This document shows, piece after piece, positions 6,193 to 46,704 of a stretch of 64,000 bases of DNA (the first letter of the stretch is position 1; every line of letters starts with the position of its first letter). The notes under the pieces were generated by a model, which worked only from the letters and a program-made list of their open reading frames with translations, was not told where the DNA came from and made no database searches. The position numbers were made by a program, and so were the translations under genes. The DNA lies in NCBI GenBank assembly GCA_963769935.1, contig CAVYNY010000010.1, forward strand, positions 544,001 to 608,000, written 5' to 3'. The stretch comes from an uncultured delta proteobacterium (GTDB lineage: Bacteria; Desulfobacterota; Desulfobacteria; Desulfobacterales; JAFDCJ01).

Positions 6193-6209
6193 GGATTTAT
6201 CTTTGGTAA

Positions 6210-17899: not shown

Positions 17900-18023
17900 C
17901 TTAATTTGTCCTCGCGGCGAGCGGAGATTCCGGCGCGCTCGCCGGGCTAAAAAAAGTCCTCTACTCTCTCGCCAACGCAACCCGTTTGGCAATGGCCGAG
18001 AGCTGCCTGCGATCTGTTTCCGC

Positions 18024-20496: not shown

Positions 20497-20584
20497 ATAA
20501 TGCTCCTTTATAAGTTTCAATTCGAAACTTATACCCGGTGAACCGCGGCCATAACAATTTGGCCGGCGGTGCACTTTCGATCAC

Positions 20585-20990: not shown

Positions 20991-21147
20991 GTTCACACCT
21001 CCTGTTGCTATATCTGGTCGTAAAATTTACTGGAATGATTTCCTGTTGCTCCGTTGAATCCCTGGTGAAAACCAGTGAAACCGGCAAATTACCGGGATAA
21101 ACCGGCCCTGGTAAGCTCAATGCTCGATATTCGCTCATTAAATAGTT

Positions 21148-21903: not shown

Positions 21904-21948
21904 AGTTTTTCTCCTTTGCTTGAAACGGTTCAACGGATTCGTTTGATG

Positions 21949-24799: not shown

Positions 24800-25065
24800 C
24801 CACTCCTTTGTCAGGTGAATCGGCAGAACAGGCTGGAAGTTCATCACATCCTGCTCGCGGGTCTTGTCCGTCGCTTCCCCCTGCAAGTAGTAGCGGTTGA
24901 ACTGAAAGTTCAGTGCCCAGATGTCCGCTACCGGGTTGTTGAGCTGCTTGGCCACATCGGCCATGGACTTGTGATCCGGCGCGGCGGGTTCGCCCGTCTG
25001 GGCACCTGCGCCGCCGGGCAGGCAAAAAACAATACACAGAAAACTAAAAGCCATCGAATTTTCAT
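24800..25065 (-). CDS. 5' exon of the intron-split outer-membrane protein
   Basis: Signal peptide, AKQLNNPVADI, NFQPVLPIHLTKEW; start is either 25054 or 25065 (the latter has the RBS but needs a T-run indel). Confidence 0.75.
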
Positions 25066-25272
25066 AATTTATTCCCTTTCATGGTCTATCGGAGCTAAAA
25101 CCGCATTGCCTGTTTTAAACTCGGCTGGCCTTATTCCTCCTGACAGTCGGGTATGAGGAGCAGCTGAGGGTCGAGCGGCTGAACAGCCGCCGATCGCGCT
25201 GTCCGCCCCAACCTGTGTGCTGTCCATAAAGGCCGCTCTCCGACAAGCTTAACAGTAGATCGGAACGCAAAA

Positions 25273-27027: not shown

Positions 27028-27359
27028 CTATTCGCGGGTTTGGATTCTGGCCTGTTCTATGGTTTCCACGCCGGTCGAGTGCGCGATTTGTCGAAACGGA
27101 TCTCCGGGGGTTCGGCGGCCATCTCGACCACCAGAAGAACTTTGCGGTATTTCTCGGATCGCAGATGACACTGCACGTCCTCGTCACTCATCCAGAGTTC
27201 CTCGAGCAGGATAGCGCGCCCATCCTCCACACCCCCATAAAGCCAGCGGCCGATACAACCCGGCTCGAATTGGGTCTGCTCGGTCGTCGAACCCAGAATT
27301 TCCAAGGCCTCGCTCTGCTTTTCAAGTGGTATGAGCATCCTGATGGTGGATCGTACCAT
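27028..27359 (-). CDS. Antibiotic-biosynthesis-monooxygenase (ABM) fold protein (frameshift near 27090)
   Basis: EPGCIG..LLEELW..HLRSEKYRKVL; the alternative frame gives the end IAHSTGVETIEQARIQTRE*. Confidence 0.7.
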
Positions 27360-27516: not shown

Positions 27517-27533
27517 AGCGAAATCTATGCCAG
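27517..27533 (-). promoter_or_regulatory. Sigma-54 (-24/-12) promoter
   Basis: Minus strand CTGGCATAGATTTCGCT, GG-N10-GC spacing. Confidence 0.75.
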
Positions 27534-27631
27534 ATGGATGAGAACAGGCTGCCTGTCGGATAAGACCCTTTATATATTAGATTTTTGCTAATTGGCGCCG
27601 GGTGAACGCAAGGGGAATAAAATCGGCTTTC

Positions 27632-27666
27632 TGCCGATATTTCGGCACACTGCTCTTATTTCGGCA
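27632..27666. promoter_or_regulatory. Tandem palindromic upstream activator sites
   Basis: TGCCGATATTTCGGCA (27632-27647) and TGCTCTTATTTCGGCA (27651-27666). Confidence 0.7.
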
Positions 27667-27925
27667 TGCTTTTAAGGCCCTCACAAAAATTTTTGAACTC
27701 TCAATCGGGAATTTGCCTTCTCCCGCGAAGCGACAGGATGCTATCAAATGCTTCCATCCAAGATCCTTCATAGCAGGGCTCCTTTAAAACTAAAATGAGA
27801 CGTTCAAACTAAGACGGGGCGTTCGTGCGAGCTTTTACAAATCGATAATCGCTGGTACTTCAAAATGCATCATCCGTCAAAAAATCTTAAATTCCCGGTC
27901 GAGGCAGGGCGCATTCGTATGGCCC

Positions 27926-28709
27926 TCAGGGCTGCAGGCCGACATTCGCGAGAGCGGTCCGGGCTGCTTCGGCGCTCAGCCGCTCGACGTGGGGCCTGAC
28001 CTGCCGGATCACCTCCGGACTGAGAAACCGAAGATCGCTTTTCCAGGGAAAATCCGGCAAGGATGATTGGCTGCAGGGCGCCTGCGCGTAGCTTGCCAGG
28101 GTCGCCGGCCGAGTCTGGAAAATCGCGACAACGATGTTGGCATAGGGAGTTGCCGTGTTTTGGAAGGGCGAAAAAAATTGGGAGAGTCCCGAAAGAGCCT
28201 TGGTCCGGGTGTAGATTCCATAGCCTTTGGTGGCCACCGGATCATTAGCGATCTTAAAGCAGGCAACCTGCGGCCACCGGCCGGAGTCGTAGCTGCTTAC
28301 GGAGATGATCAGATCCAGGCGGTTTTCTTCGGCGGTTTGGTTTATAAAGGCCTTGAGATCATCCCCCATCCACCCCGTAACGGCGTTGAGGATACTGTTT
28401 GACATCGACTGCTTCCAGTCTTGCGGGGCATTGCCCGCGATGGGGATAAACGTATAGCTGCCGCGGGCCCGCAAGTCACTTTCGATTGTCCGGGTGAGGT
28501 AACCCGGAATGTTCCAATCCACATTGTAATCTTTGGTAAAGCTGTCGAAGCGCAGCGATCCAACATCCACGTGGGTCATATCAGTCTCCAGCAGATTGAG
28601 GATGCCGATTCGGGCTTCCGGCGGCAACTGCAGCCGTACCGGTTGCGAACCCGCGCAACCCAGTTACGCTCATCATAATCAGAAACAAAGCAGGACGAAA
28701 GATGTGCAT
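27926..28709 (-). CDS. Hypothetical lipoprotein (frameshift near 28665 in the signal peptide)
   Basis: MHIFRPALFLIMMSV, then LGCAGSQPVRLQLPPEARIG in the shifted frame. Confidence 0.55.
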
Positions 28710-28787
28710 GTGACAGGGCTCCTTTATTTTAGCAGCTAATTGACTGATTTTACGAAAAATGCCTGCTTAATTGTAATGGAAATTATG

Positions 28788-29005
28788 AAAATCCCAAGCA
28801 CCAAAAACCAAATCCCAAACAAATATCAATGATTCAAATTCAAAATTCCAAACAATTGAACCGTCCACAGTTGTGCCAACGGCATCATCACCGGCAGACG
28901 AGGGGTTGAGAAGCGATGCGATACAACTATTTTGAATGTTTGGGTTATTGAATATTCAAAAATTTGCTATTTATTTGTAATTTGGTGCTTGAGATTTGGG
29001 ATTTT
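28788..29005. repeat. Long imperfect inverted repeat made of CCAAAT-like heptamers
   Basis: Arms at about 28788-28855 and 28937-29005. Confidence 0.7.
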
Positions 29006-29172
29006 ATTTTCTCACATCTTCTGGTCAAACTGGCTTAGAAGGCACTTTGGCGTGACCCTGGTGCATGTGATGACTCCTAACGAATCACTAATAGCTTCGA
29101 CCTAAATTGAGCAATTAAATTGAGAAGATTGCTACAATCGCATGTGCAGGCAGGGACGTCCTCTGAGCTTTC

Positions 29173-32100
29173 CTAGCTTTTCAATTCGTTTGCCAATTTC
29201 AGGATGCCATCCACGTCAAAATCTTCAGACAGTTGAATGATTTTGTCACAAAAAGGTATCAGAACATTGTCTTCAGACTTCAATTCTTCGGCGATGGCCG
29301 CGGCTTGCATCACATCCCCCATTTCAGCCGCCGCTTTGATGCGATCGGCCGCTTTCTGAGCCAGATTATGCGGTACAACCAGCGTCCCGCCGCCGATCCT
29401 CTCGTTGGTTTTCTTTTCAGCCGTGGGCGCTATGATTTTAACCGCGTCCAGAGCCTGCTCGAGCGCACTTTCCAGTTCTGTTAATTTCCGGTTCAATTCC
29501 TTCTCGGAGGCAGACTTCGCAGTCTGCCCCTTAACAAGTTTTTCCATTGCCACGGCCGCCGCCTGAAGGTCGACGGCGGCCAGATTCCCGGCCAGCCCCT
29601 TCAGGTTGTGGATTAGGCTGTGGGTATGATTAAAATCATTGGCCGCCAAGGCTTCCCGAATTTCGGCGGCGGCGCTGCCGTAGTTGGCGCCGAAATCAAG
29701 CAGCAGCTTGCGGTAAAGGTGTTTGTTGCCCATCAGGCGCGCCAGACCGGCTGCCAGATCGAAGCCCGGCAATGATTCCGGCAGATGATCTTCATCCGGC
29801 TCCGCCTGAACAGCTCCCGCGGATGCATCACTTGCCGGCGGCCCTACTGAGGCGGTTAAACTTTTTTGAACCACGATTCGCCCCGAAACCGGCTTGATCC
29901 ACTTTTGCAGGGCAGCAAACAGCTGGTCCGGATCAATCGGCTTGGTTACGTGATCGTTCATTCCGGCTGCAAGACTCTTTTGTTCGTCACCGGACATGGC
30001 ATGCGCCGTCATGGCGATAATTGGAAGGCCAAAGGCTAAAGGTGAAAGGCTAAAGGTTTCATCGCGGTATTCTGTCTTGTTTCCGCTATCTCCGACTCGC
30101 TGTCCTATGTCCTCTGTCTTCTGACCTATGTCTTCTGCTTGCCGCGCCATAGCCCGGAGGGCGACGGCGGGTCCTCTGTCTTCCGCATTTACACTATGCG
30201 CTATGCTCTTTGCGCTAGGCTTTAAATTTTCAGCTTCCCACATCCGGATTTGCCTTGTGGCCGTGTATCCATCCATCACCGGCATCTGAACATCCATGAG
30301 GACGGCCTCGAATTCCGCTGACTTTACCAGATCGACGGCTTCCTGGCCGTTATTGGCGATGGTGACTGTCAGCCCCGCCCCTTCCAGGATCTCTTTGGCC
30401 ACCTGCTGGTTGATTTCATTATCTTCCACCAGAAGCACCCGGGCTCCATAAATAGCCTTTAGCTGCCCGGCACTCGGTTCATTTGGCCGGCCGGCCGGAG
30501 ATATGTCGTGAAGCTCTTTTCCCAGGGCCTGCATGACGGCATCGAACAGCATCGATGAGCTCACCGGCTTGATCAGAAAACCATCCAATCCGATTTGATC
30601 GGCCTGCCGCATAATGTCTTCCCGACCGTAGGCCGTCACCAGGACGATGGCTGGGATTTTACTCAATTGTTTATGGGTCTTGATGCGCCCGGCGGCTTCG
30701 ATGCCGTCCATGCCCGGCATCTTCCAGTCCATGATGACAAGCTCAAACGGTTTATCCCGGTCCACCCGTTCGATTTCCGCCAGGGCCGCTTGTCCGGAGG
30801 CTGCCAGAAAAACTTCGAATGAAAAAGATTCCAGAATTTCCTGCAGAATTTGGCGGGACGTGGCATTGTCATCCACCACCAGCACCTTCAAGCCTCGGAT
30901 ATCGGGCGACGGCACAAAACGCTTTTTGACCGCATCTTTTCCCAGACCGAAGACGGCCGTAAAATTAAAGGTCGTGCCTTTCCCGGACGCGCTTTCCACC
31001 CAGATCTCGCCGCCCATCAGATTGACCAGGCGCTTGCTGATGGTCAGCCCCAACCCGGTACCGCCGTACTTGCGCGTAGTCGAAGTGTCGGCCTGGGAGA
31101 AGGCCTGGAACAGCTTGGCCTGCTGTTCCGCCGTCATGCCGATGCCCGTATCCCGCACCGAAAACTGAAGGGTAACTTTATCCTCCGACCTCATTTTTAT
31201 CCGGGTGGTCAGCACAATCTCGCCTTGCTCGGTGAATTTTACCGCATTGTTTCCCAGGTTGACCAGGATTTGATTGAGTCTTAACGGATCTCCGACCAGG
31301 AAGTTGGGCACCCGCGAATCGAGGTAGAACAAAACTTCCAGATTCTTTTTTTCCTGCGCTTTGATGGTGATCACATTGGCGACGTTATCCACGGTCTCCG
31401 ATAGATCGAACTCCACGACTTCCATTTCCAGCTTGCCGGCTTCGATTTTTGAGAAATCCAAAATGTCGTTGATGATCCCCAGCAGAGAATTGGCCGAAGA
31501 TTGAATTTTGTTCAAATAATCCTGCTGCTTGGGCGTCAGCTCGGTTTTCAGCGCCAGGTGGGCCATACCGATTACGGCATTCATCGGGGTGCGGATCTCA
31601 TGGCTCATGTTGGCCAGAAAATCGCTTTTGGCCCTGGTGGCGGCTTCGGCCTTAACCTTTTCTTCGTCGAGCTTCTCCATTATGTTAAGCATGGCCGATT
31701 GGGCCTCATCCAGTTCTTTAATGCGTTCATGCAGATCGTTCTCCATTTGTTTGCGCTCGGTAATATCCAGAAATGAGGCCAGGACATCAAGGACATCACC
31801 CTTTTCATCGCGCGTGCAGGCAACGGTTATATTGGTATATACGATTGCGCCGTCCTTGCGGATAAAGCGCTTGTCAAGGGTGTAGTTGTCGATTTGACCG
31901 GTCAGCATCCGTTCGAACTGTTTTACATCGGCAGTGAGATCGTCGGGATGGGTAAGCTCGGCCCAAGTCATCTGGCGCAGCTCATCCAGCGTATAGCCAA
32001 ACATTCGCTGCAATTGATCATTGGCCTCCACCCATCCTTTGACCGGCGAGGTGATCGCCATTCCGGTCTGGCTATGCTCAAAATAACTGCGAAACCGGGC

Positions 32101-34485
32101 CTCTTTTTCCCGCATGCGCTCCCCCATCAGCTTACCTGCGGTAATGTCACGCAGTGATTCGATGGCACCCGCAACTTCACCGGCCGTATTATAAAGCAGG
32201 CTGGCGGTCCCGCTGACATACATGCCGTTCTCGCCCAGCGCCGGGTGAAAGGATTCACTGATCAGGATTTCGCCGTCCTTTCTAACCGACAGGTATTTCT
32301 TTTCATAGGTTGCATCCCAATCTTTTACCAGGTCGATTAAGACGGGGCGTCTTTCGCCGTAAAACGGCAAAGCATATTCATAATTACCCTTGCCGATCAT
32401 ATCCTCGGCGGGGATATTCAGAAGGTTTTCCATGGCCTTGTTCCAGGCGATCACGATGCCGTCGCAATCGATCACCCAGGTGGGGTCCGGTAAAAAATCG
32501 ATAATCTGGGCCAGACGCCGCTGGGATTCCTTGGATGCTTTTTCAGTCCGCTGGCGCTCTTTCACTTCCCTGGCCAAAGTCCTGTTCCAGCGAAGAATGA
32601 TAAGCAGAATAATTGCCGAGATCCCCACAGCGGCTGCCGCCACCCGGATGACCAAGCCCCAATCCACCTGTTGCTCAAAGCGGACATTGATCCAGCGGTT
32701 TTGAATGTCTGTTTTTTCCGAATCCGGGACGGTGCCCAAGCTGATATTCAGGATGTTGACCAGGTCGGGCCAGTCTTTGCGCACCGCAAAGCGAAGATCA
32801 TAGGTATCGGGGGTGGTCGTGACAATCTTGAGGTTGCTCAAACCCAATTTCTGCGTGGTATAGGTAATGGAGGCGAGATCGCCCACGAAGGCGTCTATGT
32901 GTTTCCTTGACAGGGCTCGCAGCGCATCCTCGATGTTGTCTGCCAGGTAAAACCTGCGGTTCGGATATTTCTCTAGGAGATATTCCTGATTCGCACGATC
33001 TCGGACGAGGCCCACGCGACCGTCCTTAAAATCCTTGACAGTATTGCCGAATGGGACATTGTCCCGGGTGAGAATAACTTTGGGAGAACTCAGGTAGGGA
33101 TTTGTGAACAGAAAAACCTGCGACAGCTCCGGGGTCTTCGCCACACAGGGCAAAACGTCAATTTTTCCTGCTCGGGCAGCGTTCATGACTTGAGTCCGGC
33201 TAAGCCCTTCAACCGGTTGCATGTTTATCTTCAACTGCCGGTTTAAGCGGCGGACATAATCTGCGGCGATTCCCGCAAAGATATGGGCGGCATCGAAATA
33301 TTCAAACGGCGGCCGGTCCGGGTCCACACCGAGGCGGATATTTTTGTGCGCTGCCAGCCATGCCTTTTCGTCCACCGTCAGTTCGATGCTTCTTTGCCGG
33401 GGGGCGAGACGGGCCGCAATTTCATTCAGATCAAACTGGTACAGCTTGAGGGTTGGATTTTGGGCTTTGGAGAATTGACGAAAATCCAGCGATCGCACGG
33501 CCTGGGAGGTAAACGGAGCCAGGCTTTGGGCGTTGGCCCGCGTCAGGGCGACCATGGCCGATCCGAACTGCAGCTGTTCATTGGCGAAATCGACGCCGTT
33601 GAGGTAGTCGAACAACAAGACGACGGCCCAGGCTCCATCCAAAAAGTGTCCTCCCACACTCACCTGCATATGGTCCTGCTGAATGGCTTCGAGGGCGTCT
33701 TTATCCCAATCGACCCCGCCGATGAGGATTTTCCGCTTTAGATGCAGCTCTTGAACAGCCTTCACCACACCCATCGCCATATTGTCGTTGGCGCACCACA
33801 CAATGTTCACATTCGAATGCGAGCTGTAATAATCTTTAAATTGGTCATAGGCGGTTTGGCGGTTCCATTTGCCCGCGACAATTTTGAAGGCATCCAGCCC
33901 CTTTAAGTGTTTCAGATATTGGCTAAGGCCTCTCACCCGGTCGATGGAAGACTCATCTTTGGGATTGCCCTCGATGGCAAGCACATCAAAACGCTCGATG
34001 CCTTTTGATCTGGCCTCATTGATCAGTTGCTGAATGAGAAGGGTCCCGGCCTTGACATCATCCGGCAGCACACTGCTGATCCAGTATTCATATTTGGTGC
34101 GCGGCAGAAGATCCTTTTCCGGCAGTTGGGAATTAATGAGTATGGCGGGCGTTTTATGATCTTCGGCAATCTGCAGGATCCGTTCGCCGGTGTTTTGGTA
34201 CGCCAGAAAAATAATGCCGTCAATTCCTCCCCGGACGGCTTCTCTAACCTGCGCCACCATTTTCTCCGGATCGTCGTCGGCGTTAAAGGCCTGAAGTGTC
34301 ACTCCCAGATCCGCGGCGGCTTCTTTAGTGAAAAAGACGGCTTTCGTCCAGAAAGGATCGTCGCGAGGGTAAAAAATGGCAACCTTGAAGTTTTTGGCGT
34401 ATAGCGGCGGCGGCGCTGCGAGGCCTAAAAGAAGCAAGCATGTAATAAGAATTGAAAAAATGCATGGGGGAGTGAAACGTGCCAT
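29173..34485 (-). CDS. Hybrid sensor kinase: type I PBP + type II PBP + TM + 2 PAS + HisKA + HATPase + 2 REC + Hpt
   Basis: [58 protein letters not shown]. Confidence 0.92.
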
Positions 34486-35033
34486 TGCCGCCTCTTGCTA
34501 AGTGCATGTATTCGTAAATACGCTAACGTATAAGAATAAAGCCGAACTATTGACAAAATACTGTTTTCCTGTGAATACGTTACTGTAATTACGAAATAGA
34601 GTACTACTTCTTTAGGTATAAGGTTTGTCCTCCGGTCCTTGGGCAACTGTTATCAAATGGGATCGGAGGAACCTTTTCGGGGACGCCGCTCGAAGCGGTT
34701 GGTTTAGATTAAACTAAACACGAAACGCCAAAAACCAAATATCAAGCACCAGAAATTCTTGCCAAAAGATTCGTTTTTAACTTTTTACATCGCCATCATT
34801 TTAGCTAATCAATCTGCCCTGACTGCCCTGAAAAATAACGAAAATTCAGACAATGGCTCATTATTTTCATTTGGGTAGTCTGTCAATTTTATAAAGATCG
34901 ATAGAGCGAAGCGATTCAATAATTTTAGGCACTTTAGGCACTTTAGATCATTTTAGGCACTTTTTTACAATACAATATCAGTATGTTATAAAAGCTGCCG
35001 GAAGTTAAAATAAATAGGACACAGCAGAATTGA

Positions 35034-38003
35034 TTATCTTCTCAATTCATCCGCCAATTCCAGGATACCACTCAGGTCAAAATCCTCAGACAGTTGAATT
35101 ATTTTGTCACAAAAAGGTGTGAGACCATTATTTTCAGACTTCAACGTTTTGGCAATCGATGCTATTTGCACCACATCTCCCATTTCAGCCGCCGCTTTGA
35201 TGCGATCGGCCAGGTCTCGAGCTATTTCGGGGGCTATACAGGCCATTTCGGATTCGGTGCACGCGACGGTTTTCTTTTCAGACATGGGAACCAGGGTTTG
35301 AACCGCGTCCAGCGCCTGCCCGAGAGCTTCTTGCAGGTCTGTTAATTTCCGGTTCAATTCTGTATCGGAGGCCGCCTCCCCTGCCCACCCTTTAACGAGT
35401 TTTTCCATTGCCACCGCTGCTGCCTGGAGGTCGACGGCGGCCAGATTTCCGGCCAGCCCCTTCAAGTTGTGAACCAGGCCGTGGGCACGATTAAAATCTT
35501 TGGCCGCCAATGCCTCACGGATGTCAGCGGCGGCGCCGCAGCAGCTGGCGCCGAAATCAAGCAACAGCTTGCGGTAAAGGCGCTTGTTGTCCATCAGACG
35601 CGCCAGACCCGCCGCCAGATCAAAGCCCGGCAAAGATTCAGGCAGTTCATCTTCATCCGTCTTCGCCTGAACAGCCTGCGCTGGTGCATCAGGTACCGGT
35701 GACCCTCCTGAGGCGGGCAAACTTTTTGGGTCGACGATCCGCTCTGCAGCCGGTTTGATCCACTTCTGCAGGGCGGCAAACAGCTGGTCCGGATCAATGG
35801 GTTTGGTCACATGATCGTTCATCCCGGCCGCCAAACTCCTCTCCCGATCGCCGGCCATGGCATGGGCCGTCATCGCGATGATAGGAATGGGATGCTGGAT
35901 GCTGGATACTGGATACTGGATACTGGTTGGCGGCAGTTCAGAGGACTGAGGACCCGTCTTCGTCGGGGTAAGTGAGGGAATACGCCGCGGCGAGCTGAGG
36001 ACCGAGGGTTGGCCCTCGATTTCGGATTTTAAATCAGAATCCTCTCCGACAGTCTTCCTTGTTTTCAATACATCAGTATCCGCGTTAGCGGAGACTGATT
36101 CCCACTTCCGGATCTCCCGTGTGGCTTCAAAACCGTTCATCTCAGGCATCTGTATATCCATGAGCACCACATCGTAGATCCGCTCCTTGACCATCGCCGC
36201 TGCTTCTTTGCCGTTGTTGGCAATGCTCACCACCAATCCTGCGTTCTCCAGAATCTCCTGCGCCACCTGCTGATTGATCGCATTGTCCTCCGCCAGCAGC
36301 ACTTTTGCCCCGCGAATCTTATCAAGCTCCTGCGCCGCATCGGTCCCCGCCCGGGCTTCGCGCTCAAGCTCAGGAACTTCCTTGCCGAAAGCGGCCATGA
36401 TCGCGTCAAAAAGCATGGACTGGCTCACGGGTTTGAGGAGAAAACCATCCAAGCCTATTTTCTCGGATATCCGCATGAGCTCTTCACGGCCATAGGCCGT
36501 CACGATGATAATCTTGGGCTTGCGGGGGATGTCGGAATGCCTGTTGATAATTTCGGAAGCCTCAATGCCATCCATCCCCGGCATTTTCCAGTCCATCACC
36601 ACCAGCTGATACGGCCGGAGCTTCGCTTCCCTCGCCAGTTCTGCGATGCCCTCCTCCGCCGAGGCTGCCACTGAAACCTCAAAACTCATGCTCGCAAGCA
36701 GCGTCTGTAGAATCTCACGGGAGGATGCATTGTCGTCCACGACTAAAACCCGCATCCCCTTCAGATCCAGCGACGGCTCCAGGTATCTCTCCGTCACTCT
36801 CCCCGTTAAACCGAATTTTGCGGTGAATATGAAATTGCTGCTCTTGCCGGGTTCGCTCTCAACCCAGATTTCCCCTTTCATCATGTTCACCAGGTGCTTG
36901 GAGATGGTCAGCCCGAGCCCCGTTCCCCCGAACTTGCGCGTCGTGGACGAATCCGCCTGGGTAAAGGCCTCAAACAGCTTCTGCCTCTGCTCGGGGGTCA
37001 CTCCGATCCCCGTGTCGCGAACGGAAAATCGAAGCATCACCCATTGTTCCTCTTTTTCCACCATTTCGGTGGCAAGCACGATCTCTCCGGCCTCTGTAAA
37101 CTTCACCGCATTGTTGCACAGGTTGGTCAGCACCTGGCCCAGCCGCAATGGATCCCCCACCAGCGCCATGGGCACCTCCGGCGCCGTATCCATCAGGAAC
37201 TCCAGCTTTTTGTCCTGAGCCTTCACACCGGCAATCGTCGCTACGTTATCCAGGACTTCATCCAAGCCGAAATCCACAGACTCCATGTGCAGCTTCCCCG
37301 CTTCAATCTTGGAAAAATCCAAAATGTCGTTGATGATTCCCAGCAGGGAATTGGCGGAACGCTGGATCTTGTTCAAATAATCCTCTTGCTTGGGGGTCAA
37401 GGCCGTCCGAAGCGCCAAATGAGCCATTCCGATCACGGCATTCATGGGGGTCCGGATCTCATGACTCATGTTGGCCAGAAAATCGCTCTTGGCTTTTGTG
37501 GCGGCCTCGGCCGCCTGCTTGGCGAGGTGCAGTTCCTCAGCTCTGGTTTTTAATTCTTCGTTTTTGGCCTTCAGGTCGTTCAAAAGTTCCAGCCTGGAGG
37601 GACGTGCCAGACTTTGTCTTTGCATTTCGACAAACTCATCCGACAGGTGACCGGCGCTATCCGGCAGATAGCTGAATGTCCTGATTCTGACCGTCTTCTG
37701 CTCAGTGCGGTCGATTTCAAATGTGTCAAAAAAAAATTTTAAATTCGGCATTGAGATCAATTGCTCAGGGCACTGAAAGGTCATCCATAGTCCGCTCCGG
37801 CCCTCACGCCGGTCAATGCCGACAGAAATTTTTGTGCCCTTGCCGCCCTTTCTTCCCAAGCCGGTGATTTCAGAAACAATCGTTTCCAGCCGGGTGGCAT
37901 GAATCGGTTCGCAGCCTAAATCTTCGGCCAGCAAGCGAATCTTTTTCCGCGCCGCAACTCTGGTATTTTCGTTCTTTACCGATAAATTACCGAGTTTGAT
38001 CAT
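35034..38003 (-). CDS. Cytoplasmic hybrid kinase with degenerate RsbT-like N-terminal domain + HisKA + HATPase + 2 REC + Hpt
   Basis: N-terminal [25 protein letters not shown]; same kinase motifs as the paralog; no TM. Confidence 0.88.
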
Positions 38004-38598
38004 GCTTCCTACCTCCCAGATACTTCAGCACAATACAGGATGCGTCATCATTTTCCTTCCAAAATTGCTTGAGCAGCGCGCTGGCGATGGATTCCGCGGT
38101 ACCTTTCAGTATTTCCGGACACTCGGAGAGTTCGAAATGCTCCTTAATGCCGTCTGAATGCATAACGAGAACATCTCCAGCCAATAGTTTCAGGGCTTGC
38201 TTTTTGACGGTGGACATCATGTAGCCGACGATTCCATCTCTGGAAACGAATCGAACGGCCCTCGGACCGAGCACCCTTACCACGATGTTGCCCATACCGA
38301 CGTAAATCAGCTCGCCTGTCGCGGTGTCCAAACGGCAAATGGCCGCCACGGCGCCCCGCGTGCCCTTGAGACACGTATGCAGACCCTGCATAACTTCGAC
38401 CGGCTCTTTGCGGCAATTCTGTTCCAGATACGTTTGGGCTGTAAGCGCAACATCATGCGCTTCGCGCCCGTGGCCCAGCACATCAACCAGTGCCAGAAAA
38501 CACCGGCCGTCAAACTCTTTTATGACCCCCGTGTCGCCGCATTCAGCTTCTCTTCGGGTAAGCGCTCGCTTTACCAGATGGCAGTCCACTCTTGACAT
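37987..38598 (-). CDS. rsbX: RsbX-like PP2C/SpoIIE phosphatase
   Basis: [34 protein letters not shown]. Confidence 0.85.
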
Positions 38599-39031
38599 AA
38601 TCGCCCCACTTCCGTGTTGAAACAACGGTGCCGCGCCCCGGCTGAGACTCGATCCTGAACTCGTCCATAATCCGTTTAACGCTCGGCAATCCCAGCCCCA
38701 GGCTGCCTTTAGTCGTGCTGAAATTATCCTGCAGCGCCTGTTCGATGTCTCTGATTCCCGGCCCGTCGTCACGGGCAATAATTTCGATGCCCAAGCGGTT
38801 GTTGCGTTGGACAATTCGCAAGGTAAGTTCGCCTTTTTGGGCATAGTTGACGATGTTGGTCGCGAGCTCTGAAGCCGCTGTGGCAATCAAAAACTGATTG
38901 ACTTCATCGAAACCGGCCGCAGCAGCCAGGTGTCTCGCCGCTGTAATCACCTGCTCCTTGTCGTTCTGATCGGACAGCAGGATTCGTCTTTCATTATATT
39001 TCGGCGGGGCGGCCCGTTCATTGTTCACCAT
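38543..39031 (-). CDS. rsbT: RsbT anti-sigma-type Ser/Thr kinase
   Basis: IATAASELATNI, DDGPGIRDI, SLGLGLPSVKRIMDEF, GTVVSTRKW. Confidence 0.9.
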   Translation of the reverse strand: MVNNERAAPPKYNERRILLSDQNDKEQVITAARHLAAAAGFDEVNQFLIATAASELATNIVNYAQKGELTLRIVQRNNRLGIEIIARDDGPGIRDIEQALQDNFSTTKGSLGLGLPSVKRIMDEFRIESQPGRGTVVSTRKWGDYVKSGLPSGKASAYPKRS

Positions 39032-39473
39032 CGCTGTCCCCTTCACCGTTTTCTATTACGATGCTATCCGGGTCCTCAGCGTCCTGAACCCCCTCCTGAA
39101 TCGATAAAACGTTTTGGATCTGCTCGAACCCGTCTTCCATGGTCAGGGCCGCACGGATACCATCGATTTCGACCTCCAGATCGATCAGCGACGATACGAC
39201 GCCGGGCTGCAGGCCGACGAATACGTTCGCCACCCCCAGCAGCGACGTCATCCGCGCGGTGTCGGCCAGGAATTTGAACGCATGCGAATCCAGGGCGCGC
39301 ACCGTACTAAGGTCCAGTATCATCCCCCGTACTTTCGCTGCTTGAATTTTCTGCAAAATGGCCGTTCGAATTTTCATCAGCGTGTCATCGTAAAGCTCAC
39401 CCTGCAAGGTAACCACAAGACAGCCGCGGATGGTGCTCATTGCGGTTTCGCTATCGATCAGCAGGCCTTTCAT
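39018..39473 (-). CDS. rsbS: RsbS STAS protein
   Basis: LVVTLQGEL, GMILDLS..LDS, VGLQPGV. Confidence 0.85.
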   Translation of the reverse strand: MKGLLIDSETAMSTIRGCLVVTLQGELYDDTLMKIRTAILQKIQAAKVRGMILDLSTVRALDSHAFKFLADTARMTSLLGVANVFVGLQPGVVSSLIDLEVEIDGIRAALTMEDGFEQIQNVLSIQEGVQDAEDPDSIVIENGEGDSDGEQ

Positions 39474-39475
39474 TA

Positions 39476-40300
39476 TCAGGATTTCCTCCCCAGGGGCTTG
39501 ATTTCGCGCACCTCAAAATTCATCATCTTGAACGAATCCTCCAAGGCGTCTCTTAAAGTAGAGTTGGTCTTGACCTCACCCATCTCGATTCCCAACTGGA
39601 CGATCGTACTCGCCACAGCCGGCGAAATCCCGGAAATAATACACTGGCAGCCCATCAGCCGCGTGGCCTTGGTGATCTTGATCAGGTGATTGGCCACGGC
39701 GGTGTCGACCGCTGCCACGCCCTGGATGTCAAGGATGATTACCTTGGCCGACGTCTCCTTTATTTTGGTCAGCATGGTGTTGGTCATCTGCTGAGCCCGC
39801 ATGGAGTCGATCACACCCACCACCGGAAGGACCAGCACCCGGTCCCAGAGTTCGATGGTCGGCGTCGATATCTCCCGGATCGTGCGGCTTTGTTCTTCCA
39901 ACCTTTGTTCATCGCGGACCTTCTCGCTGATGTCGAGCATAAATTCCAGACCTCCGATGACATTTCCTTCCGGGTCTTTGAGTGGGACGGCATAGTATTC
40001 AATGTACACGGTTTGATCGCCCATTGGAATCTCATTCCGACCGGACCGAACCTCATAATTCTCTATGGCCTGAAGCATTCGGCAGTCCATGGTCTGGCAA
40101 TGGGCTGAACCAAATAGATCGTAACAGTGCTGTGTTGCGACCTCCTCCCATGACTTGCCGAGGAATTTGCGACCGGCGGCATTCATGTAAATGATTTCCA
40201 AGTCTTTATTCACCGCCATTACCGGGGTAGGAATTTGTTCCAGAATCTGCTCCTGAATTCCAGAATATGCCTGATTTTCTGTTTTGATCTTTTCGTTCAT
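39476..40300 (-). CDS. rsbR: RsbR stressosome sensor (PAS + STAS)
   Basis: IREISTPTI..VLPVVGVIDSMRAQ..DIQGVAAVDTAVANHL..SGISP. Confidence 0.9.
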   Translation of the reverse strand: MNEKIKTENQAYSGIQEQILEQIPTPVMAVNKDLEIIYMNAAGRKFLGKSWEEVATQHCYDLFGSAHCQTMDCRMLQAIENYEVRSGRNEIPMGDQTVYIEYYAVPLKDPEGNVIGGLEFMLDISEKVRDEQRLEEQSRTIREISTPTIELWDRVLVLPVVGVIDSMRAQQMTNTMLTKIKETSAKVIILDIQGVAAVDTAVANHLIKITKATRLMGCQCIISGISPAVASTIVQLGIEMGEVKTNSTLRDALEDSFKMMNFEVREIKPLGRKS

Positions 40301-40369
40301 TTTTTTCTCCTTTTTTATAAGGACAATACAGTCTTAACTTTGATTTCGTTGAATATTTTTAATTTTTTT

Positions 40370-40452
40370 TATCACGAAAATACGAAATATAGAAAGCACG
40401 AAATTTATCTTATCTTTTTCGTGTTTTCGTCCTTTCGTGCTTTCGTGATTAT
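40370..40452. repeat. Inverted repeat of ACGAAA/TTTCGT units
   Basis: ATCACGAAAATACGAAA...GCACGAAA paired with TTTCGTG..TTTCGT..TTTCGTGCTTTCGTGAT. Confidence 0.7.
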
Positions 40453-40506
40453 TTTTTTGGTTTTCGCGGACCCGGGTTAGGGTTTTAAACCGATATTCAA
40501 CCGAGT

Positions 40507-43500
40507 CTATTGCCCGATGCTGTGGATGTTGCACGGATGGGCTTTATAAGCGCCGAGGTTGACAAAGGGCGCCAACAGTCCGAGCGGGCCGATCACCAGC
40601 GCACTGAGGGCCTTGGCGCCTTTCGATAATAGAGAAAACATATCCGGCCGCACCTTGGGGTCCGTGATCGGGCCGCTGACGCGCAGCTTGGTCCAAAAGT
40701 CCATGAGGCTCGGAAATCTGGGCTCCGGAACGAGCAAAAAATCAACCTGTTCCGTGCCCAGATTGATGTCGCCTTCGCCGGTCAGCACACCCGCCTCGGT
40801 GTCGAACACGAACGCTTGGCTGGCTGCTATTCCGCTGCTGATATCAAATTGAACGACGGCGCACTTGATTTCTCCGCCTTCGTGGTGGCTGCCCCAGAAA
40901 TGAATGACCTTTCTGGTAAGACCCAGCGAAATCAGGTCCAGGTAGTGGGTCAGGTAGCCTTTGCCCATGACGGCCCCCACGCTGCCGTCCAGACCGGCCA
41001 TCAGATCATGCAGGGAGCCGCCCCGGCTATTGACATCGACGGCGATATCGAGGTGGGAACGGACCTGCTGGCTGATCCGCAGTCCCCGCAGAAGTCCGCC
41101 GAGGTCAAAGTCCTGGACGAGGAATTTGGCGGCGACCCGGGCCGGCGATTCGGGATAGAGATGGAAGTTGCCGGAAATTCGGGTCTGCTGGTAAGTCGCC
41201 TGAAGCGTTTCGACGTTGAGATCACCGTTCTCGACGGTGAGCATCAGGCGGCCGAACTCAAAGTTTGCATCGCGGGCGCGGACGTTTTTAGCATTCAGGC
41301 TGATGTCTGCGTCCACTTGCTTGAGAATATTTAAAGGCAGCGGATCATCGCTGAATAATCGGCCTTCCAACCTGCCGGGCTCCCTACCGGGCTCTTTTTC
41401 GTCCTGCCTCAGATTTTTCAGCAGCGCCGTCATATCCAGCAGCGAAGATTCCAGTCTCAATGTGATCTTCGGGCGTTCGCGAAACTCAACTTTTGCCAGG
41501 CCGTTGAAGTCGCTTTTATCGACGACCGCCGTCAAATCGGCCAGGGAAAAAGACCGGGCCGACCCGCTGAGATGTCCGCTGAAATCAAAGGGGCCCAGTT
41601 CGGGGAGGTTGGCGCCGACCAGGGGACCGATCTCGGCCAATTCCTTTCCCCCGGCTTTCAGCCTCAGGTCCATGCCTTCGAGCGCCGGCAGGTCTTTGAT
41701 TGTCCCGGTTGCCTCCAGGCTTAAGCTGCCGCGCCGGGCCTCGCCCCGGACCTCCTGCAGGGACAACGCCCCGGCTGAGCCCGCCAGGCGACCCTGCAGT
41801 GAAAACGCATCGGTCGGGGGCAGCTTCTGTCCGACAATTGTCTCAGCCTGGGCCAAGTCCTTGCCGGCCCCTTTCAGTCGCAGATCCACATGCCGAAAGG
41901 CGCGCAGGTCCCCAATCTTGCCGGTTACCGTCAGGTTCAGGTCGCCGCGTAGGGCCTGGCCCATAATGTCATGCAAGGACAGCGCCCTGCCGGAGCCCGT
42001 CAGACGGCCCTCCAGAACAAATTCATCCGTCGACGGCAGCTTCTGTGCTATGATCGACTCCGCCTGTGCCAGGTCTTTACCCGTACCCCTCAGCCACAAA
42101 TCCACGTAGCGGAAGGCCGGCAGGTCCTCGATCGCACCCTCGACCGTCAGGTTCAGGCTGCCGCGCCGGGCCCGGCCCCGGATATCATGCAGGGCCAGCG
42201 CTCTGCCGGAGCCCGTCAGGCGACCCGCCAATTCAAATTCATCGGTCGAAAGCAGCTTCTGCCCGATGATCGACTCCGCCTGTGCCAAGTCATGGCCCGT
42301 GCCCTTAAGCCGCAGATCCACTTGCCGAAAGGCAGCCAGGTCCCCAATAGCACCTTCGGCCGTCAGGTTCAGGCTGCCGCGATGGGCCCGGCCCTGAAAA
42401 TTCTGCAGGGACAGGGCTTTGGCTGAGCCAGTCAGACGACCCTGCAGGGCAAACTCATCGGTCGGCGGCAGCTTTTGACCGACAATCTCTCCCACCTGCG
42501 CCAAGTCCTTGCCCGTACCCTTGAGCTGCAGGTCCACGCCCTGGAAAACAAGCAGGTCCCCGATTGCACCCTCGGCCGCCAGGTTCAGGCTGCTGCGCCG
42601 GGCCTGTCCCCGAACGTCCTGCAGGGACAAGGCCTTGGCCGAACCCGTCAGACGGCCCTCCAGGGAAAACTCATCGGTCGGCGGCAGCTTCTGACCGACC
42701 ATCGCTCCCACCTGCGCCAGGTCCTTGCCCGAACCCTTTAGCTGCAGGTCCATGTCCTGCAGCGCCATCAGATTGCCGACTCGACCGCTGACGGCCAACG
42801 CAGCCTCGCCGGCCGACACAGTGCCGCTGATGTTTTCCAGCATAGGAAACCGGCCGGAACCTGCCAAATGTCCGCTGAGATCGAAAGCGTCCGTCTGCGG
42901 CAGCTCTGCACCGATACCACGCCCTAACTCCTGGAGGCTCTTCCCAGCGACGCGAAACTTCAGATCAAGCCCTTGCAAAGCGCGGACCTCACCGATCGAT
43001 CCGGCGAGGTTGACGGTTGCGCTCAAAAACCGTCCTGCCAGCTCAAGCGGAAACTGTTCGCCTGATACGATCCGCTGCAGCCGGCCGATCCGGCCGGAAA
43101 GCGCAACGGGCTGCCCGTTGTAGTCGGCCTGGAGCTTGAGCGCCAGAAAATCAGGATCTGCCCGCCGGGCTATTTCAAGGCCGGCCAGATTGAACCGGGT
43201 CGTATGGGCCGCTTTCTCATCGCGATAGGTGAGCTTAAGGTTTTCGACCCGGATATCCTCCACCGCGATATGCAGGCGGGTGGGCGGGCCGGATGGCGAT
43301 GCAGAGCCGGCAGAGGCTGTAAATTGCCAGTTGCGTTGCCCGGCTGCATTCATCACCAGGACCACATCGACGCCGGATAGCGTAAGATACTTCAACTCGA
43401 CATCACCGAACAACAGCGGCAGGAGCCGGACCTTGGCCTCTATTCGCCGGGCGGTTATCATCTGCGGGTCGGAAGCCCAGGGGGCGTTGGCCAAAGCCAC

Positions 43501-43707
43501 TTCCGTGACCATAAGGGCCGGTGATAAACCGAATTTAAGACCCACCTCGCCGCCCAGCGTCAATTCCCGGCCGGTGCGTTCTGCGACCATCCGCTCGATC
43601 CGCGGCTTGAGCTTGGCGTAGTCGTAGGTGCTCAAAACCAGATAGGCCGCTGCCGCCAAAGCGACAATTAAAGCGGCCCCGACCAATGCAATCCATTTCC
43701 AACGCAT
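40507..43707 (-). CDS. AsmA-family protein with internal 72-aa tandem repeats
   Basis: N-terminal TM + KPRIERMVAERTGRELTLGG..LANAPWA..LLPLL; C-terminal CAVVQFDI..GEGDINLGTE..VSGPITDP. Confidence 0.88.
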   Translation of the reverse strand: MRWKWIALVGAALIVALAAAAYLVLSTYDYAKLKPRIERMVAERTGRELTLGGEVGLKFGLSPALMVTEVALANAPWASDPQMITARRIEAKVRLLPLLFGDVELKYLTLSGVDVVLVMNAAGQRNWQFTASAGSASPSGPPTRLHIAVEDIRVENLKLTYRDEKAAHTTRFNLAGLEIARRADPDFLALKLQADYNGQPVALSGRIGRLQRIVSGEQFPLELAGRFLSATVNLAGSIGEVRALQGLDLKFRVAGKSLQELGRGIGAELPQTDAFDLSGHLAGSGRFPMLENISGTVSAGEAALAVSGRVGNLMALQDMDLQLKGSGKDLAQVGAMVGQKLPPTDEFSLEGRLTGSAKALSLQDVRGQARRSSLNLAAEGAIGDLLVFQGVDLQLKGTGKDLAQVGEIVGQKLPPTDEFALQGRLTGSAKALSLQNFQGRAHRGSLNLTAEGAIGDLAAFRQVDLRLKGTGHDLAQAESIIGQKLLSTDEFELAGRLTGSGRALALHDIRGRARRGSLNLTVEGAIEDLPAFRYVDLWLRGTGKDLAQAESIIAQKLPSTDEFVLEGRLTGSGRALSLHDIMGQALRGDLNLTVTGKIGDLRAFRHVDLRLKGAGKDLAQAETIVGQKLPPTDAFSLQGRLAGSAGALSLQEVRGEARRGSLSLEATGTIKDLPALEGMDLRLKAGGKELAEIGPLVGANLPELGPFDFSGHLSGSARSFSLADLTAVVDKSDFNGLAKVEFRERPKITLRLESSLLDMTALLKNLRQDEKEPGREPGRLEGRLFSDDPLPLNILKQVDADISLNAKNVRARDANFEFGRLMLTVENGDLNVETLQATYQQTRISGNFHLYPESPARVAAKFLVQDFDLGGLLRGLRISQQVRSHLDIAVDVNSRGGSLHDLMAGLDGSVGAVMGKGYLTHYLDLISLGLTRKVIHFWGSHHEGGEIKCAVVQFDISSGIAASQAFVFDTEAGVLTGEGDINLGTEQVDFLLVPEPRFPSLMDFWTKLRVSGPITDPKVRPDMFSLLSKGAKALSALVIGPLGLLAPFVNLGAYKAHPCNIHSIGQ
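41680..42770 (-). repeat. Five closely similar 216-bp coding tandem repeats, with a diverged unit on each side
   Basis: GCAGCTT(C/T)TG anchors at about 41820, 42036, 42252, 42468 and 42684. Confidence 0.9.
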
Positions 43708-43876
43708 GGCACACTTTACCTTTGCCGGCAGTTTTTTTGCTGCGGCGTTTCTTAATGTAAGGGTCTAATCTTCCTCAATAAACGGAAATTGGAAAAAGTA
43801 ACCGCTGTGGCTCAGCAAATTTATCACAAAAACCGCAAAAATTTACCCCCCAACGATACCAAGACGAGTAAACCAT

Positions 43877-43893
43877 AGCGAAATATGTGCCAA
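43877..43893 (-). promoter_or_regulatory. Sigma-54 (-24/-12) promoter upstream of asmA
   Basis: Minus strand TTGGCACATATTTCGCT, GG-N10-GC. Confidence 0.8.
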
Positions 43894-43990
43894 TCTGGCA
43901 ACAACTGATTGAAGGCGACATAAGGTGCCTTGGTAGCTGGGTTTATTCTCAGATGGAATGGGAAAAGCCGGCTTAAGAAATGCGGTGATA

Positions 43991-44025
43991 TGCCGATATT
44001 TCGGCAGAACGCCCGTATTACAGCA
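43991..44025. promoter_or_regulatory. Tandem upstream activator sites
   Basis: TGCCGATATTTCGGCA (43991-44006; identical to 27632-27647) and degenerate CGCCCGTATTACAGCA (44010-44025). Confidence 0.7.
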
Positions 44026-46704
44026 TCACTTGGCGGGGCGCCGGATGCCCAGTTTTTTTATCTTCGACTGCAGGGTGGTGCGCTTGAGACCCAGAATCTC
44101 CGCGGCACCGCCCTGTCCTGTAAGGCGCCAGCCGCTTTTCTCCAGAACGCCCAGGATGTGCCGGCGTTCGGCATCCGCCAGGCTGAGATTCGCGGGGATA
44201 TCGGAAGACGCCGTCCGGGGTGCGCTGACGTCCAGGGATTTGCCGCTGCTCACAATCATGGCGTGCTCGACGACATTTCGCAGCTCCCGGGCGTTGCCCG
44301 GCCAGAGGTAATGCTGCAGGTCTTCCATGCTTTTGCGCGGGATGTGGTCGATGCGCTTGCCCATCTTTTTTTCATACTGCCTGACAAAGGCCCAGACCAG
44401 CAGGGGAATATCCTCCGGCCGTTCCCGCAGCGGCGGCACGGCTATGGGAAACACATTCAACCGGTAATACAGGTCCTTTCTGAATTTTGCTTCGGCCACA
44501 TCGCGGGCCAGATCCCGGTTGGTGGCCGCGATGATGCGCACGTTCACCTGCAGCGGCTTGGTGGATCCCAGACGCTCGAACCGGCCTTGTTCCAGCACCC
44601 GCAGCAGCTTGGCCTGCACATCCTGCGGCAGATCCCCGATCTCGTCCAGAAACAGCGTGGCCCCGTCGGCCACCTCGAAACGGCCCGTCATCCGGGTCAG
44701 CGCACCGGTATAAGCACCTTTTTCACGGCCGAAAAGCTCGCTTTCGATCAGCGTGGGCGGCAGCGAGGCACAGTTGACGGTCACCAGGGACCGGTCCTTG
44801 CGGGCGCTCAGTCGATGCACGGCCCGGGCCAGAAGCTCCTTGCCGGTGCCCGTTTCCCCCTCGATCAGGACGGTGGTATCCGTCCGGGCCACCTGCTCGA
44901 CCTGGGCCAGAATCGCCTTCAGGGCACGGCTGCGGCCGACAATCTCCTCGTGCACATTCTGCAGCTCGATCTCTTCCCGCAGGTAGATGTTCTCCTTTTC
45001 CAGCTGCCGCTTGAGGCCTTCGATCTCCTCGAGTCTCACCTGCAGCTGTTCTTCCATCTGCTTGCGCTCGGAGATATCAATGGATACACCCATCAGGCGT
45101 TCCGACTCCCCTGACGGACTAAAATAGGGACGGCCGCGACCGGCCATCCACCTGATAGTACCGTCGGGGCGGATGATGCGGTATTCCTCTCGAAAATCAG
45201 CCCGCGTCCGTTTGCACTCTTCTACGCTCCTGCGAATCCGAGCGCGGTCTTCCGGATCGACGATTTGCATGAAACCCTCGAAATTCAGCTCCTGCCCCGG
45301 GGCAAATCCATATAATTCCCTGGTTTTTTCGGTGCCCCAAATACGTCCGTTGGAAGTTTCTAAATTCCACAGGCCGGCTTCCGCAGAAGTGGCGGCCAGA
45401 TTTAGGCGCGCCTCGCTTTCGCGCAACGCTTCCTCCGAGCGCTTGCGATCGAGCGCGGCGGCAAATACGGCCACGATGAGACTCATCCGCTGTACCAAAT
45501 CCACCGGCCAGATCCGCTCCGCACGCACCGCCACTAGTGCGCAGGATCCCAGCGTCCTGCCTCCACTTAACATGGGAATTGAAAGCAACGATTTCATGCC
45601 CTTGACCCGACAAAGGCGCCGCTCCCCTTCGGCTTCAGCCGGCAGGTCTTCCAGCCGATCGACCACCACCAAATTACCTTGCCGTAATTGCGCGATGTAC
45701 CATGGCAATTGATGCTGCGAAAGGAAAACAGGCGCGGGCTCGATCCCTTCCAGATGATATTCAAATGCGCTTTGCAACCGAGCCCCGTCTTCGGTAAATA
45801 TTCCTATGGAACACCGGTCCGCATCGAAAAATTCGGTGATGCGCTGGAGCCACTTATTGATTTCGCCTTCGACTTTATCGGTCGAAATGTTCACAAATCC
45901 GGCCGAAAGATCGGATATTAACTCCTCAAACCGCAGTCGATCCGCCGACTGCTGCCGTGTCTGGGCAAGCTGCAGGGTGTTTACAAGGATCTCTCCCAGC
46001 AGGCGCAGCCGCGGAATATAATCTTCAGGCCAGGCACATTCTTTACGGACCGCATTTATGGAAATGATGTAATCCAATGAGGCACCGACGGTGATCGGGA
46101 TGTTCAGAGCGGATCGAATTTCCAATCTCTCGTATGTTTGCCGGTCGACCGCGGCCTCGCCCGGCAGCTCATCGCGTGTGGTGAAGGAGACGACTTCATG
46201 CCGCTGAATAATTTTCTCGTAGACCCAGGGAAACAACATGAGGGAAAGGTCGGCATTTTCCGGTACGGGGGAAACCTCAGAGGCATACGCGACATGGGTG
46301 ATCCGAAATGAAGTATCGATCGGTGAAATCCGGACCAGGCCGCAGCGGTCCACCTGGAAAAAATCGAGTATCTGCGTCAGGGCACTTCGAATTTGGTGAT
46401 CGACCTGGTCAGGAGCCAAGTTGATAAATCGGGCCGAAAGGTCTGACAACAGCCGCTCAAATTGCAGGCGTTCTTTGAGGCCCACCTCGGCCAGTTTGCG
46501 CTGTTCGATTTCCCGATTCAGGCGTTCGCGGACGGCAGCCAATTGCTCTTTTGCTCCGGCCGAATCCACCGCCAGTGCTTTTACGGGCCGGGCCGGGCCC
46601 GCGTGCGACCGCAGCAGAGCTTCCCCGGCCCGCCGGCTGTCTGCATTTTTCTGCGCATATTGCCGGCGATTGGTTTTTGCATTTTCCAGTCGGTCGTTGA
46701 CCAT
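44026..46704 (-). CDS. Sigma-54-dependent enhancer-binding protein (GAF-GAF-PAS-AAA+-HTH, FhlA-like)
   Basis: [65 protein letters not shown]. Confidence 0.92.

Follow-up and report, generated by a model that had tools for sequence, protein, structure and literature searches.

The 64,000-nt stretch of DNA analysed here (the window) comes from the genome of an uncultured Desulfobacterales bacterium and carries the gene of an unstudied one-component enhancer-binding protein (EBP), together with two modules in which tandem palindromes stand upstream of a sigma-54-type promoter. The modules are very likely copies of one inherited enhancer and sigma-54 promoter that the EBP (44026-46704) activates, and with high probability the protein binds TGCCGA-N4-TCGGCA. 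The modules are conserved in sequence and geometry in relatives and go together with one type of recognition helix. A preliminary description of this DNA had made the EBP the regulator of a two-module regulon. Comparative evidence and the precedent of PexR support the predicted site and both promoters as likely targets; both modules are real, but a third, outside the window, had been missed. The outcome is a precise predicted binding site and a candidate three-promoter regulon in an organism with dozens of EBPs.

The mechanism is of a known, textbook kind and resembles a standard small EBP regulon, that of PexR most of all. In sigma-54 systems, EBP dimers on tandem sites nucleate an AAA+ ring, and DNA looping brings the ring into contact with the closed complex. 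Here, the tandem sites would be occupied by a pair of EBP dimers by way of the helix KRTTLQSK, the GAF and PAS domains would sense a signal, and the assembled ring would loop to the sigma-54 polymerase, possibly aided by IHF. Transcription would then open at ∼43866, reading asmA, and at ∼27506, reading an ABM-fold gene and the envelope genes behind it; the third copy would be served as well. The activator would thereby switch on whichever cell-envelope genes follow a module.

Sequence and layout of the modules

The same 16-bp sequence, TGCCGATATTTCGGCA, occurs at 27632-27647 (module 1) and again at 43991-44006 (module 2). It is an interrupted and not a perfect palindrome, with 6-bp arms and 7 of 8 positions pairing. 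In each module, a weaker partner site follows at a 19-bp step, and the strong site lies 100 bp (module 1) or 99 bp (module 2) from the −24 GG of a minus-strand GG-N10-GC motif (Table 1). The last base of the weak site of module 2 directly adjoins the EBP stop codon (44026-44028). The preliminary description had given the repeated palindrome, the second sites, the spacing of about 100 bp and the contact with the 3' end of the EBP gene, and all four were recovered. Tandem dyads ∼100-250 bp upstream and conserved with the EBP, as expected of an upstream activator sequence, are thus present. Short-read contigs of run X1, which may be the source sample, reproduce module 2 with zero differences; an X2 contig extends across module 1 and shows 23 differences over 815 nt.

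Table 1. Predicted features of the window, ordered from the modules to the surrounding genes.
Feature	Coordinates	Strand	Remarks
Sigma-54-type promoter, module 1	27517..27533	-	CTGGCATAGATTTCGCT, read 27533-27517; C for T at −14; predicted +1 ∼27506 from −24/−12 register
Degenerate IHF-like 13-mer ending TTA, module 1	27561..27573	-	weak consensus match; register of paralogous class's near-perfect IHF sites
Strong (promoter-proximal) predicted EBP site, module 1	27632..27647	.	27.9 bits
Weak (distal) predicted EBP site, module 1	27651..27666	.	18.9 bits; 19-bp step
Sigma-54-type promoter, module 2	43877..43893	-	TTGGCACATATTTCGCT, read 43893-43877; predicted +1 ∼43866
Degenerate IHF-like 13-mer ending TTA, module 2	43921..43933	-	tentative
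Strong predicted EBP site, module 2	43991..44006	.	27.9 bits
Weak predicted EBP site, module 2	44010..44025	.	13.7 bits; abuts EBP stop codon
Enhancer-binding protein, (GAF)-GAF-PAS-AAA+(GAYTGA)-Fis-type HTH	44026..46704	-	recognition helix KRTTLQSK
AsmA-family protein, first gene past module 2	40507..43707	-	domain match
rsbR(PAS-STAS)-rsbS-rsbT-rsbX-like genes	37987..40300	-	possible read-through targets; likewise past tail module in relative G013
Two hybrid histidine kinases between modules	29173..38003	-	domain matches
ABM-fold (YgiN-like) protein, first gene past module 1	27057..27359	-	frame departs from family C-terminus near 27088
Co-oriented envelope cluster	1389..26812	-	candidate targets; similar order past ABM module in G013

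Both promoters have GG-N10-GC with TGGCAY at −24, as the preliminary description had noted in part; it had missed that the −12 element is of a minority form, positions −15 to −12 reading TCGC in both instead of the consensus TTGC. The strict TTTCGC form occurs four times in the genome, three of them in the modules, and TTGC forms number 48, compared with 5 in the control. No strict sigma-54 motif was found elsewhere in the window. By analogy with nif promoters, the C at −14 would weaken the promoter and limit cross-activation.

The exact 16-mer has two copies in the 7.99-Mb source genome (hereafter G000; other G numbers denote genomes of relatives, L numbers loci and C numbers contigs). The pattern TGCCGA-N4-TCGGCA is present at three places. 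A repeated identical 6-4-6 palindrome was present in 9 of 108 tiled 64-kb windows, 8 of the 9 owing to one dispersed repeat; the tiling cuts between modules 1 and 2, so their pair escapes this count. Between modules 1 and 2, the 98-bp spacers are 46% identical, compared with 44 ± 3% in shuffles, and blastn of one module against the other found no likeness and no long shared homology, ruling out a recent segmental duplication. By contrast with the shuffle-level spacer, the strong site is alike at 16 of 16 positions and the promoter at 14 of 17, a pattern that suggests an ancient duplication maintained by selection.

A third copy and the genome-wide scan

The genome was scanned with a three-part matrix (the weak and the strong site and the promoter), for which 43 modules of genomes other than G000 served as the training set. 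The three G000 modules scored 70.7, 66.9 and 55.6 bits, module 1 highest. The next-best place reached 6.3 bits (the tail of the EBP paralog on C35), and the reversed genome did not exceed −1.8. The scan gave no modules beyond these three and no sites upstream of the EBP gene itself. The third module (G000:C10:622187-622335) has the same layout and lies 34 kb beyond the pair in the window. It sits behind the scraps of a second, heavily deleted EBP gene (88% identical to residues 748-787), and is followed by a short membrane ORF, an 829-residue protein without a Pfam match, DUF3302 and a Na+/H+ exchanger. A gapped pattern additionally matched in G017:C38 and G000:C31, but these two places were rejected as regulon members on their strong-site scores (−19.0 and −9.6 bits).

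The enhancer-binding protein

The EBP has 892 residues, with matches to GAF (286-417), PAS_3 (459-540), Sigma54_activat (588-754) and HTH_8 (842-885). It thus has the AAA+ domain, the helix-turn-helix (HTH) of Fis type and a GAFTGA-type loop, here GAYTGA, which the available part of a study of Clostridiales EBPs counts as a working or permissive variant (PMC6615313). Of the GAF-GAF-PAS arrangement described previously, the second GAF and the PAS domain stood, but the first GAF (105-207) falls under the Pfam cut-off (E 0.006). The genome has one rpoN copy and 68 EBP-like frames, of which 55 contain a GAFTGA-like motif. The closest paralog reaches at most ∼58% in the C-terminal part, and each of four paralogs in G000 has tail palindromes of its own.

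The module at the activator's tail in relatives

Orthologs of the EBP are encoded in 5 of the 18 same-genus genomes scored (84-90% identical). All five have the strong site 19-22 nt past the stop codon and four have the promoter; the contig of the fifth ends before the promoter position. Genome, phylum and metagenome searches yielded 238 EBP ends, or 197 without near-duplicates; the labels of the relatives are Desulfobacterales and other former Deltaproteobacteria. Among these ends, 86 loci with a KRTT-type helix had at least 150 nt downstream, and the motif was sought up to 300 nt past the stop. TGCCGA-N4-TCGGCA was present with up to two mismatches in 62 (0.8 in shuffles) and with up to three in 75. 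Its offset from the stop was exactly 22 nt in 33 loci and 3 nt in 9. Where a promoter was scored (60 loci), the gap between site and GG was 97-101 bp in 46, most of the other gaps being measured from the distal site, and positions −15 to −12 read TCGC in 49. Judged from these tails, the module is part of the activator gene's own 3' end.

The TGCCGA-type motif was absent from the NRSTLRAR (0/16), KPTTLQ (0/33) and KPTTLE (0/7) helix classes, together 0/56, some of which bear palindromes of their own; it was found in 3 of the remaining 51 loci. TGGTCA-N4-TGACCA is found instead in 13 of the 16 NRSTLRAR loci, where the −12 element mostly reads TTGA; the 12 with that promoter form match the IHF consensus at 8-9 of 9 positions, in a constant location. 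TTR stands in the register of this paralogous IHF site in 60 of 64 modules, and an A-tract is also conserved; the two may constitute a degenerate IHF site. IHF/HU-family matches in the genome number 12.

Some further tails were recorded. A distant Fusibacter EBP (PRQTLQSK; L104:4423-4620) and a Planctomycetaceae EBP (KRTTLQSK; L100:4441-4600) each have TGCCG-N6-CGGCA past the stop, followed by a sigma-54-type motif. G000 contains a second set of three promoters (L003-L005; C32:12700-13170, C32:23700-24200 and C38:22900-23200) with tandem TGGTCA-N4-TGACCA at a 17-bp step, a near-perfect IHF site and TTGA at −12, a set that goes with [ND]RSTLRAR EBPs. At L003, kaiC-kaiB-kaiB-PAS genes lead into a paralogous EBP (G000:C32:1335-11846), whose tail module (CCTCAA-type sites) is followed by genes for ABM, a receiver protein, CsbD, BON, AsmA, YtxH, DUF948 and an AI-2E transporter. 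We take the CsbD, BON and YtxH genes to be general-stress genes.

Correspondence between recognition helix and site

Since the site is fixed behind the gene, about 100 natural pairs of protein and site can be read without experiment. Palindromes were called without using the motif, which succeeded for 97 of 186 EBP tails. Where helix position 2 is Arg, 130 of 144 half-sites have TG; where Arg is absent, 0 of 50 do. Where position 6 is Gln, base 3 is C in 93 of 96 half-sites, compared with 1 of 22 for other residues, which had T or A there in 21 of 22. Doubtful calls are counted in these half-site totals. A test on an AAA-core tree took 73 of the 97 called tails: eight with doubtful calls or two EBPs were removed by hand (L003, L012, L031, L085, L093, L116, L165 and L182), and the rest lacked a single AAA hit. 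The residue-to-base rules suggested by these pairs agree with two tested activators, PexR and FhlA, and are relevant to the question of how numerous EBPs can use a single sigma-54 and yet avoid cross-talk. A PDB search with the HTH of the EBP returned a single weak match (2m8g, E 0.065), so the residue-base contacts lack structural support.

Comparison with characterized activators

PexR of Myxococcus xanthus binds tandem CACCG-n6-CGGTG, as established by electrophoretic mobility shift, chromatin immunoprecipitation-qPCR, mutation and 5' rapid amplification of cDNA ends in the available part of the report (PMC12754779). On the same partial account, PexR and the EBP of the window are alike in being GAF-type one-component EBPs with tandem 16-bp interrupted palindromes upstream of a sigma-54 promoter, validated for PexR. 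PexR differs in its single metal-binding GAF, its three sites and its targets, a peroxiredoxin and a catalase that are usually divergent. The GAF domain of PexR has a His/Cys/Asp centre that binds Zn/Fe. A PexR-like set of 13 Myxococcota loci was judged by size, divergent peroxiredoxin (4/13) and sites; M. xanthus PexR itself is outside the set. The helix [KP]P[ST]TLQS[KR] was found in 9 of the 13 (the helix was unread in the other 4) and CACCGA-type sites in 7, TGCCGA-type sites in none. At one of these loci (L308), the site is CACCGATATTTCGGTA with a 19-bp step, and its inner 12 bp equal those of the window's site. The outer bases are CA in PexR-type sites and TG in the window; the PexR-like helix has Pro where the EBP has Arg. 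Identity with PexR was rejected, the outer bases being TG and the targets envelope genes, not peroxiredoxin or catalase.

EBPs with the helix KPTTLQSK in Riflebacteria- and Erysipelotrichia-labelled sequences (L114, L118, L121, L129 and L131) have PexR-type sites past their own stop, with a peroxiredoxin gene in tandem. Neither group is among the phyla that section 32 of the PexR report, as available, names (PMC12754779).

FhlA/HyfR of Escherichia coli is the best NCBIfam match of the EBP and 51% identical to it over AAA+-HTH, whereas the N-termini are just 22% alike. The helices compare as KRTTLLSR in FhlA and KRTTLQSK here. According to the accessible part of PMC7658346, the FhlA half-site begins TG[TA]C, sharing TG with the window, and the site is 14 bp long, not 16. 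E. coli target regions match the window motif at only 7-8 of 12 positions, fhlA has no module behind it, and the EBP has no formate or hydrogenase targets. Identity with FhlA (PRK15429) was rejected at 387.5 bits against a cut-off of 830, on the site length and on the targets.

In Desulfovibrio vulgaris, as far as the part of PMC4641369 considered extends, EBP regulons likewise have the EBP gene beside a sigma-54 target, one to four operons and envelope or transport functions, and both listed TTTCGC promoters belong to one EBP, DVUA0100. TGCCGA and TGGTCA are absent from the five supplementary files of that study, and the part covered describes no stop-anchored module or ABM gene. Clostridiales EBPs have multiple upstream activating sequences 100-250 bp upstream, and motif similarity tracks that of the DNA-binding domain; 'TGCC' is absent from the main text, and the parts covered give no residue-to-base rule (PMC6615313). 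No account of the regulator, the motif or the EBP-ABM pair was found in the literature within reach, which excluded subscription papers, figures and RegPrecise-type databases.

A wider proposition, less likely than not, is that there is an undescribed FhlA/PexR-like activator family in Desulfobacterota with a tail enhancer and an outward promoter that capture whatever gene lands there. A two-residue code (Arg specifying the outer TG, and Gln the third base) and class-specific −12 elements (TCGC, TTGA) would keep its paralogs distinct, and its members would jointly govern sigma-54 regulons of general stress and envelope remodelling, with the constant ABM protein as dedicated partner or feedback element.

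Weighing of the evidence and alternative explanations

Several observations weigh against activation of the modules by the EBP through this site. C at −14 is a minority form, found in 18 of 186 characterised promoters (Table 2 of PMC7658346, a source available in part). With up to two mismatches the motif is not in excess in the window (5 matches, 4.7 expected), so that only the exact pair and its geometry exceed chance. Between enhancer and promoter, the best match to the IHF consensus WATCARNNNNTTR in this class scores 7.05 of 9, compared with 6.62 in shuffles, which is no clear enrichment. The scan matrix was trained on modules picked using the window's own consensus; the scan therefore shows that there are no further copies and does not prove the motif. 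In the relatives, 24 of the 86 KRTT-type loci fall outside the two-mismatch threshold, the loci are kin, the helix classes were drawn after the tails had been inspected, and the distant KPTTLQ class was recruited by a TLQSKIKK seed. For the helix rules, 89 of the 186 tails gave no palindrome call; on the AAA-core tree (73 rows), the independent pairs were concordant in 3 of 3 and ∼3.6 of 4 cases (p 0.25 and 0.125), none in the opposite direction and too few for significance, and a third candidate residue-base rule had p 1. Module 1 groups only weakly with detached ABM-side modules (80/83, obtained without an approximately unbiased test), and several of the genes behind it are frameshifted in this assembly, as described below.

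Module 1 or the third module might instead be driven, alone or in part, by a different EBP whose helix is related, for example the C35 paralog (NRTTLYSK) or a C14 protein (KRTTLVEK). The recognition helix could be read in just 22 of the 68 EBP-like frames, a further point against our interpretation; module 1 is 16 kb from the EBP, and the tail module of the C35 paralog, of TGTCG type, is related and likewise has a TTTCGC promoter. We nevertheless consider this unlikely: the strong 16-mer of module 1 is that of the EBP's own tail module, non-Gln helices pair with T or A at base 3, and the C35 module reaches just 6.3 bits, compared with 56-71 for the three modules.

That the tail module alone works, modules 1 and 3 being relics of duplication before decaying genes, appears very unlikely. 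The remnant in front of module 3 is consistent with it, as is the state of the genes behind module 1, which also counts against regulation by the EBP: in this assembly, the ABM, DUF1254, lipoprotein and both sulfatase genes have dense single-base frame breaks (window 15300-28700), unlike the long intact frames at 29-47 kb, and one gene is split by an insertion bearing reverse transcriptase (RT) sequences. These breaks may be assembly error or strain-level decay. On the other side, short-read contigs from close relatives are one base short at 8 places in or beside the breaks, and the sulfatase frame of both G013 and G010 is long and intact. The spacer has drifted to shuffle level with sites and promoter conserved; module 1 is the top matrix scorer, and ABM-side modules persist in G010, G013, L214 and L217/218.

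The notion that the palindrome acts as an RNA hairpin (a terminator or a stabiliser of the EBP transcript's 3' end) or is a dispersed repeat, the promoter motif being incidental, accords with its place right past the stop codon, with a terminator-like match over the module 1 site (27638-27622) and with the presence of dispersed palindromic repeats in the genome, but is very improbable in view of the two exact copies, the constant distance to GG, the shift of the site sequence with the protein helix, terminator-like matches that are rarer than in shuffles (18 vs 24) and the protein-bound tandem palindromes of PexR. Terminator and sigma-70 scans gave no informative signal; a weak terminator-like match lies in the asmA leader (43818-43802). 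One palindrome of the genome, GAATATCCAGATATTC, is a dispersed repeat on C8, C13, C16, C18, C20, C22 and C38. For the module palindrome, a REP/MITE-type repeat was rejected: the flanks of the copies are not alike and the spacer is at shuffle level.

Origin of the modules and exchange of cargo

Activation by the EBP would reach different genes in different genomes. The first gene behind the EBP differs from asmA in all five same-genus orthologs, where it encodes DUF2845-type proteins, a membrane protein or a solute-binding protein. The asmA gene is thus replaceable cargo: it does come first past module 2, as the preliminary description had it, but is no fixed target. Of the 54 KRTT-type loci below 80% identity (including the C35 paralog of G000), 40 have an ABM gene directly after the EBP. 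None of the 26 at 80% or above does, although two have ABM past a second module; in this close clade, EBP and ABM are separated by different cargo together with a second module. Conversely, among the best 30 ABM loci of a 400-genome phylum sample, an EBP end lies at most 1.5 kb upstream in 15 and at most 450 nt upstream in 14. The ABM orthologs of G010 and G013 retain the module upstream, and L214, L217 and L218 have EBP-module-small gene-module-ABM on a single contig, the first module of L214 being degenerate. In an unrooted tree of 64 modules, module 2 falls within a tail clade (98/97), and a detached G008 module nests among tail modules and retains a stop-codon-like TGA.

These arrangements suggest that the older unit was likely EBP-module-ABM-cargo and that a duplication of the module probably took place in the close clade, new genome-specific cargo then coming between the copies; this order of events is inferred. 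A constant tail promoter with changing cargo would be a simple route by which a regulon gains genes.

Genes behind the modules

The envelope cluster had been proposed as a target unit. It is co-oriented behind module 1, but the first gene there is the family-defining ABM gene, which had been missed; the whole 26-kb cluster is best regarded as a set of candidate targets. It encodes DUF1254, an RT-split outer-membrane protein, two DUF4410 proteins, two sulfatases, DUF3313, MscS, FadL, MlaE/F/D, a PqiC-like protein and MlaC. Cargo is mostly of envelope type (lipid transport, AsmA, FadL, MscS, lipoproteins); that of G008 includes a phospholipase-D-family enzyme and pqi genes. The gene for the outer-membrane protein is split at 22690-24700 by an insert with RT fragments, group II intron-like, and is contiguous in G013. 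A contig joint at 22362-25221 does not coincide with the ends of this insertion and was not used.

The asmA gene, the rsbRSTX-like genes and the two hybrid kinase genes follow module 2, which possibly reads from asmA into rsbRSTX. The gap between asmA and rsbR is 206 nt and contains a repeated hairpin element and no terminator-like match. In G013, rsbRSTX and a kinase gene lie past the tail module behind two other genes, with gaps of 81 and 22 nt, so small that read-through is favoured there. At the hairpin-like repeats between genes at 40370-40460 and 28790-29010, the summed depth of contigs is high and loose ends are numerous.

Fold and Atlas searches with the ABM protein returned generic ABM relatives only. 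An additional helix at the C-terminus, an invariant Trp and Ser and often CxxC mark the EBP-linked ABM subfamily, and 2178 proteins match its alignment (A2) at E ≤ 1e-25.

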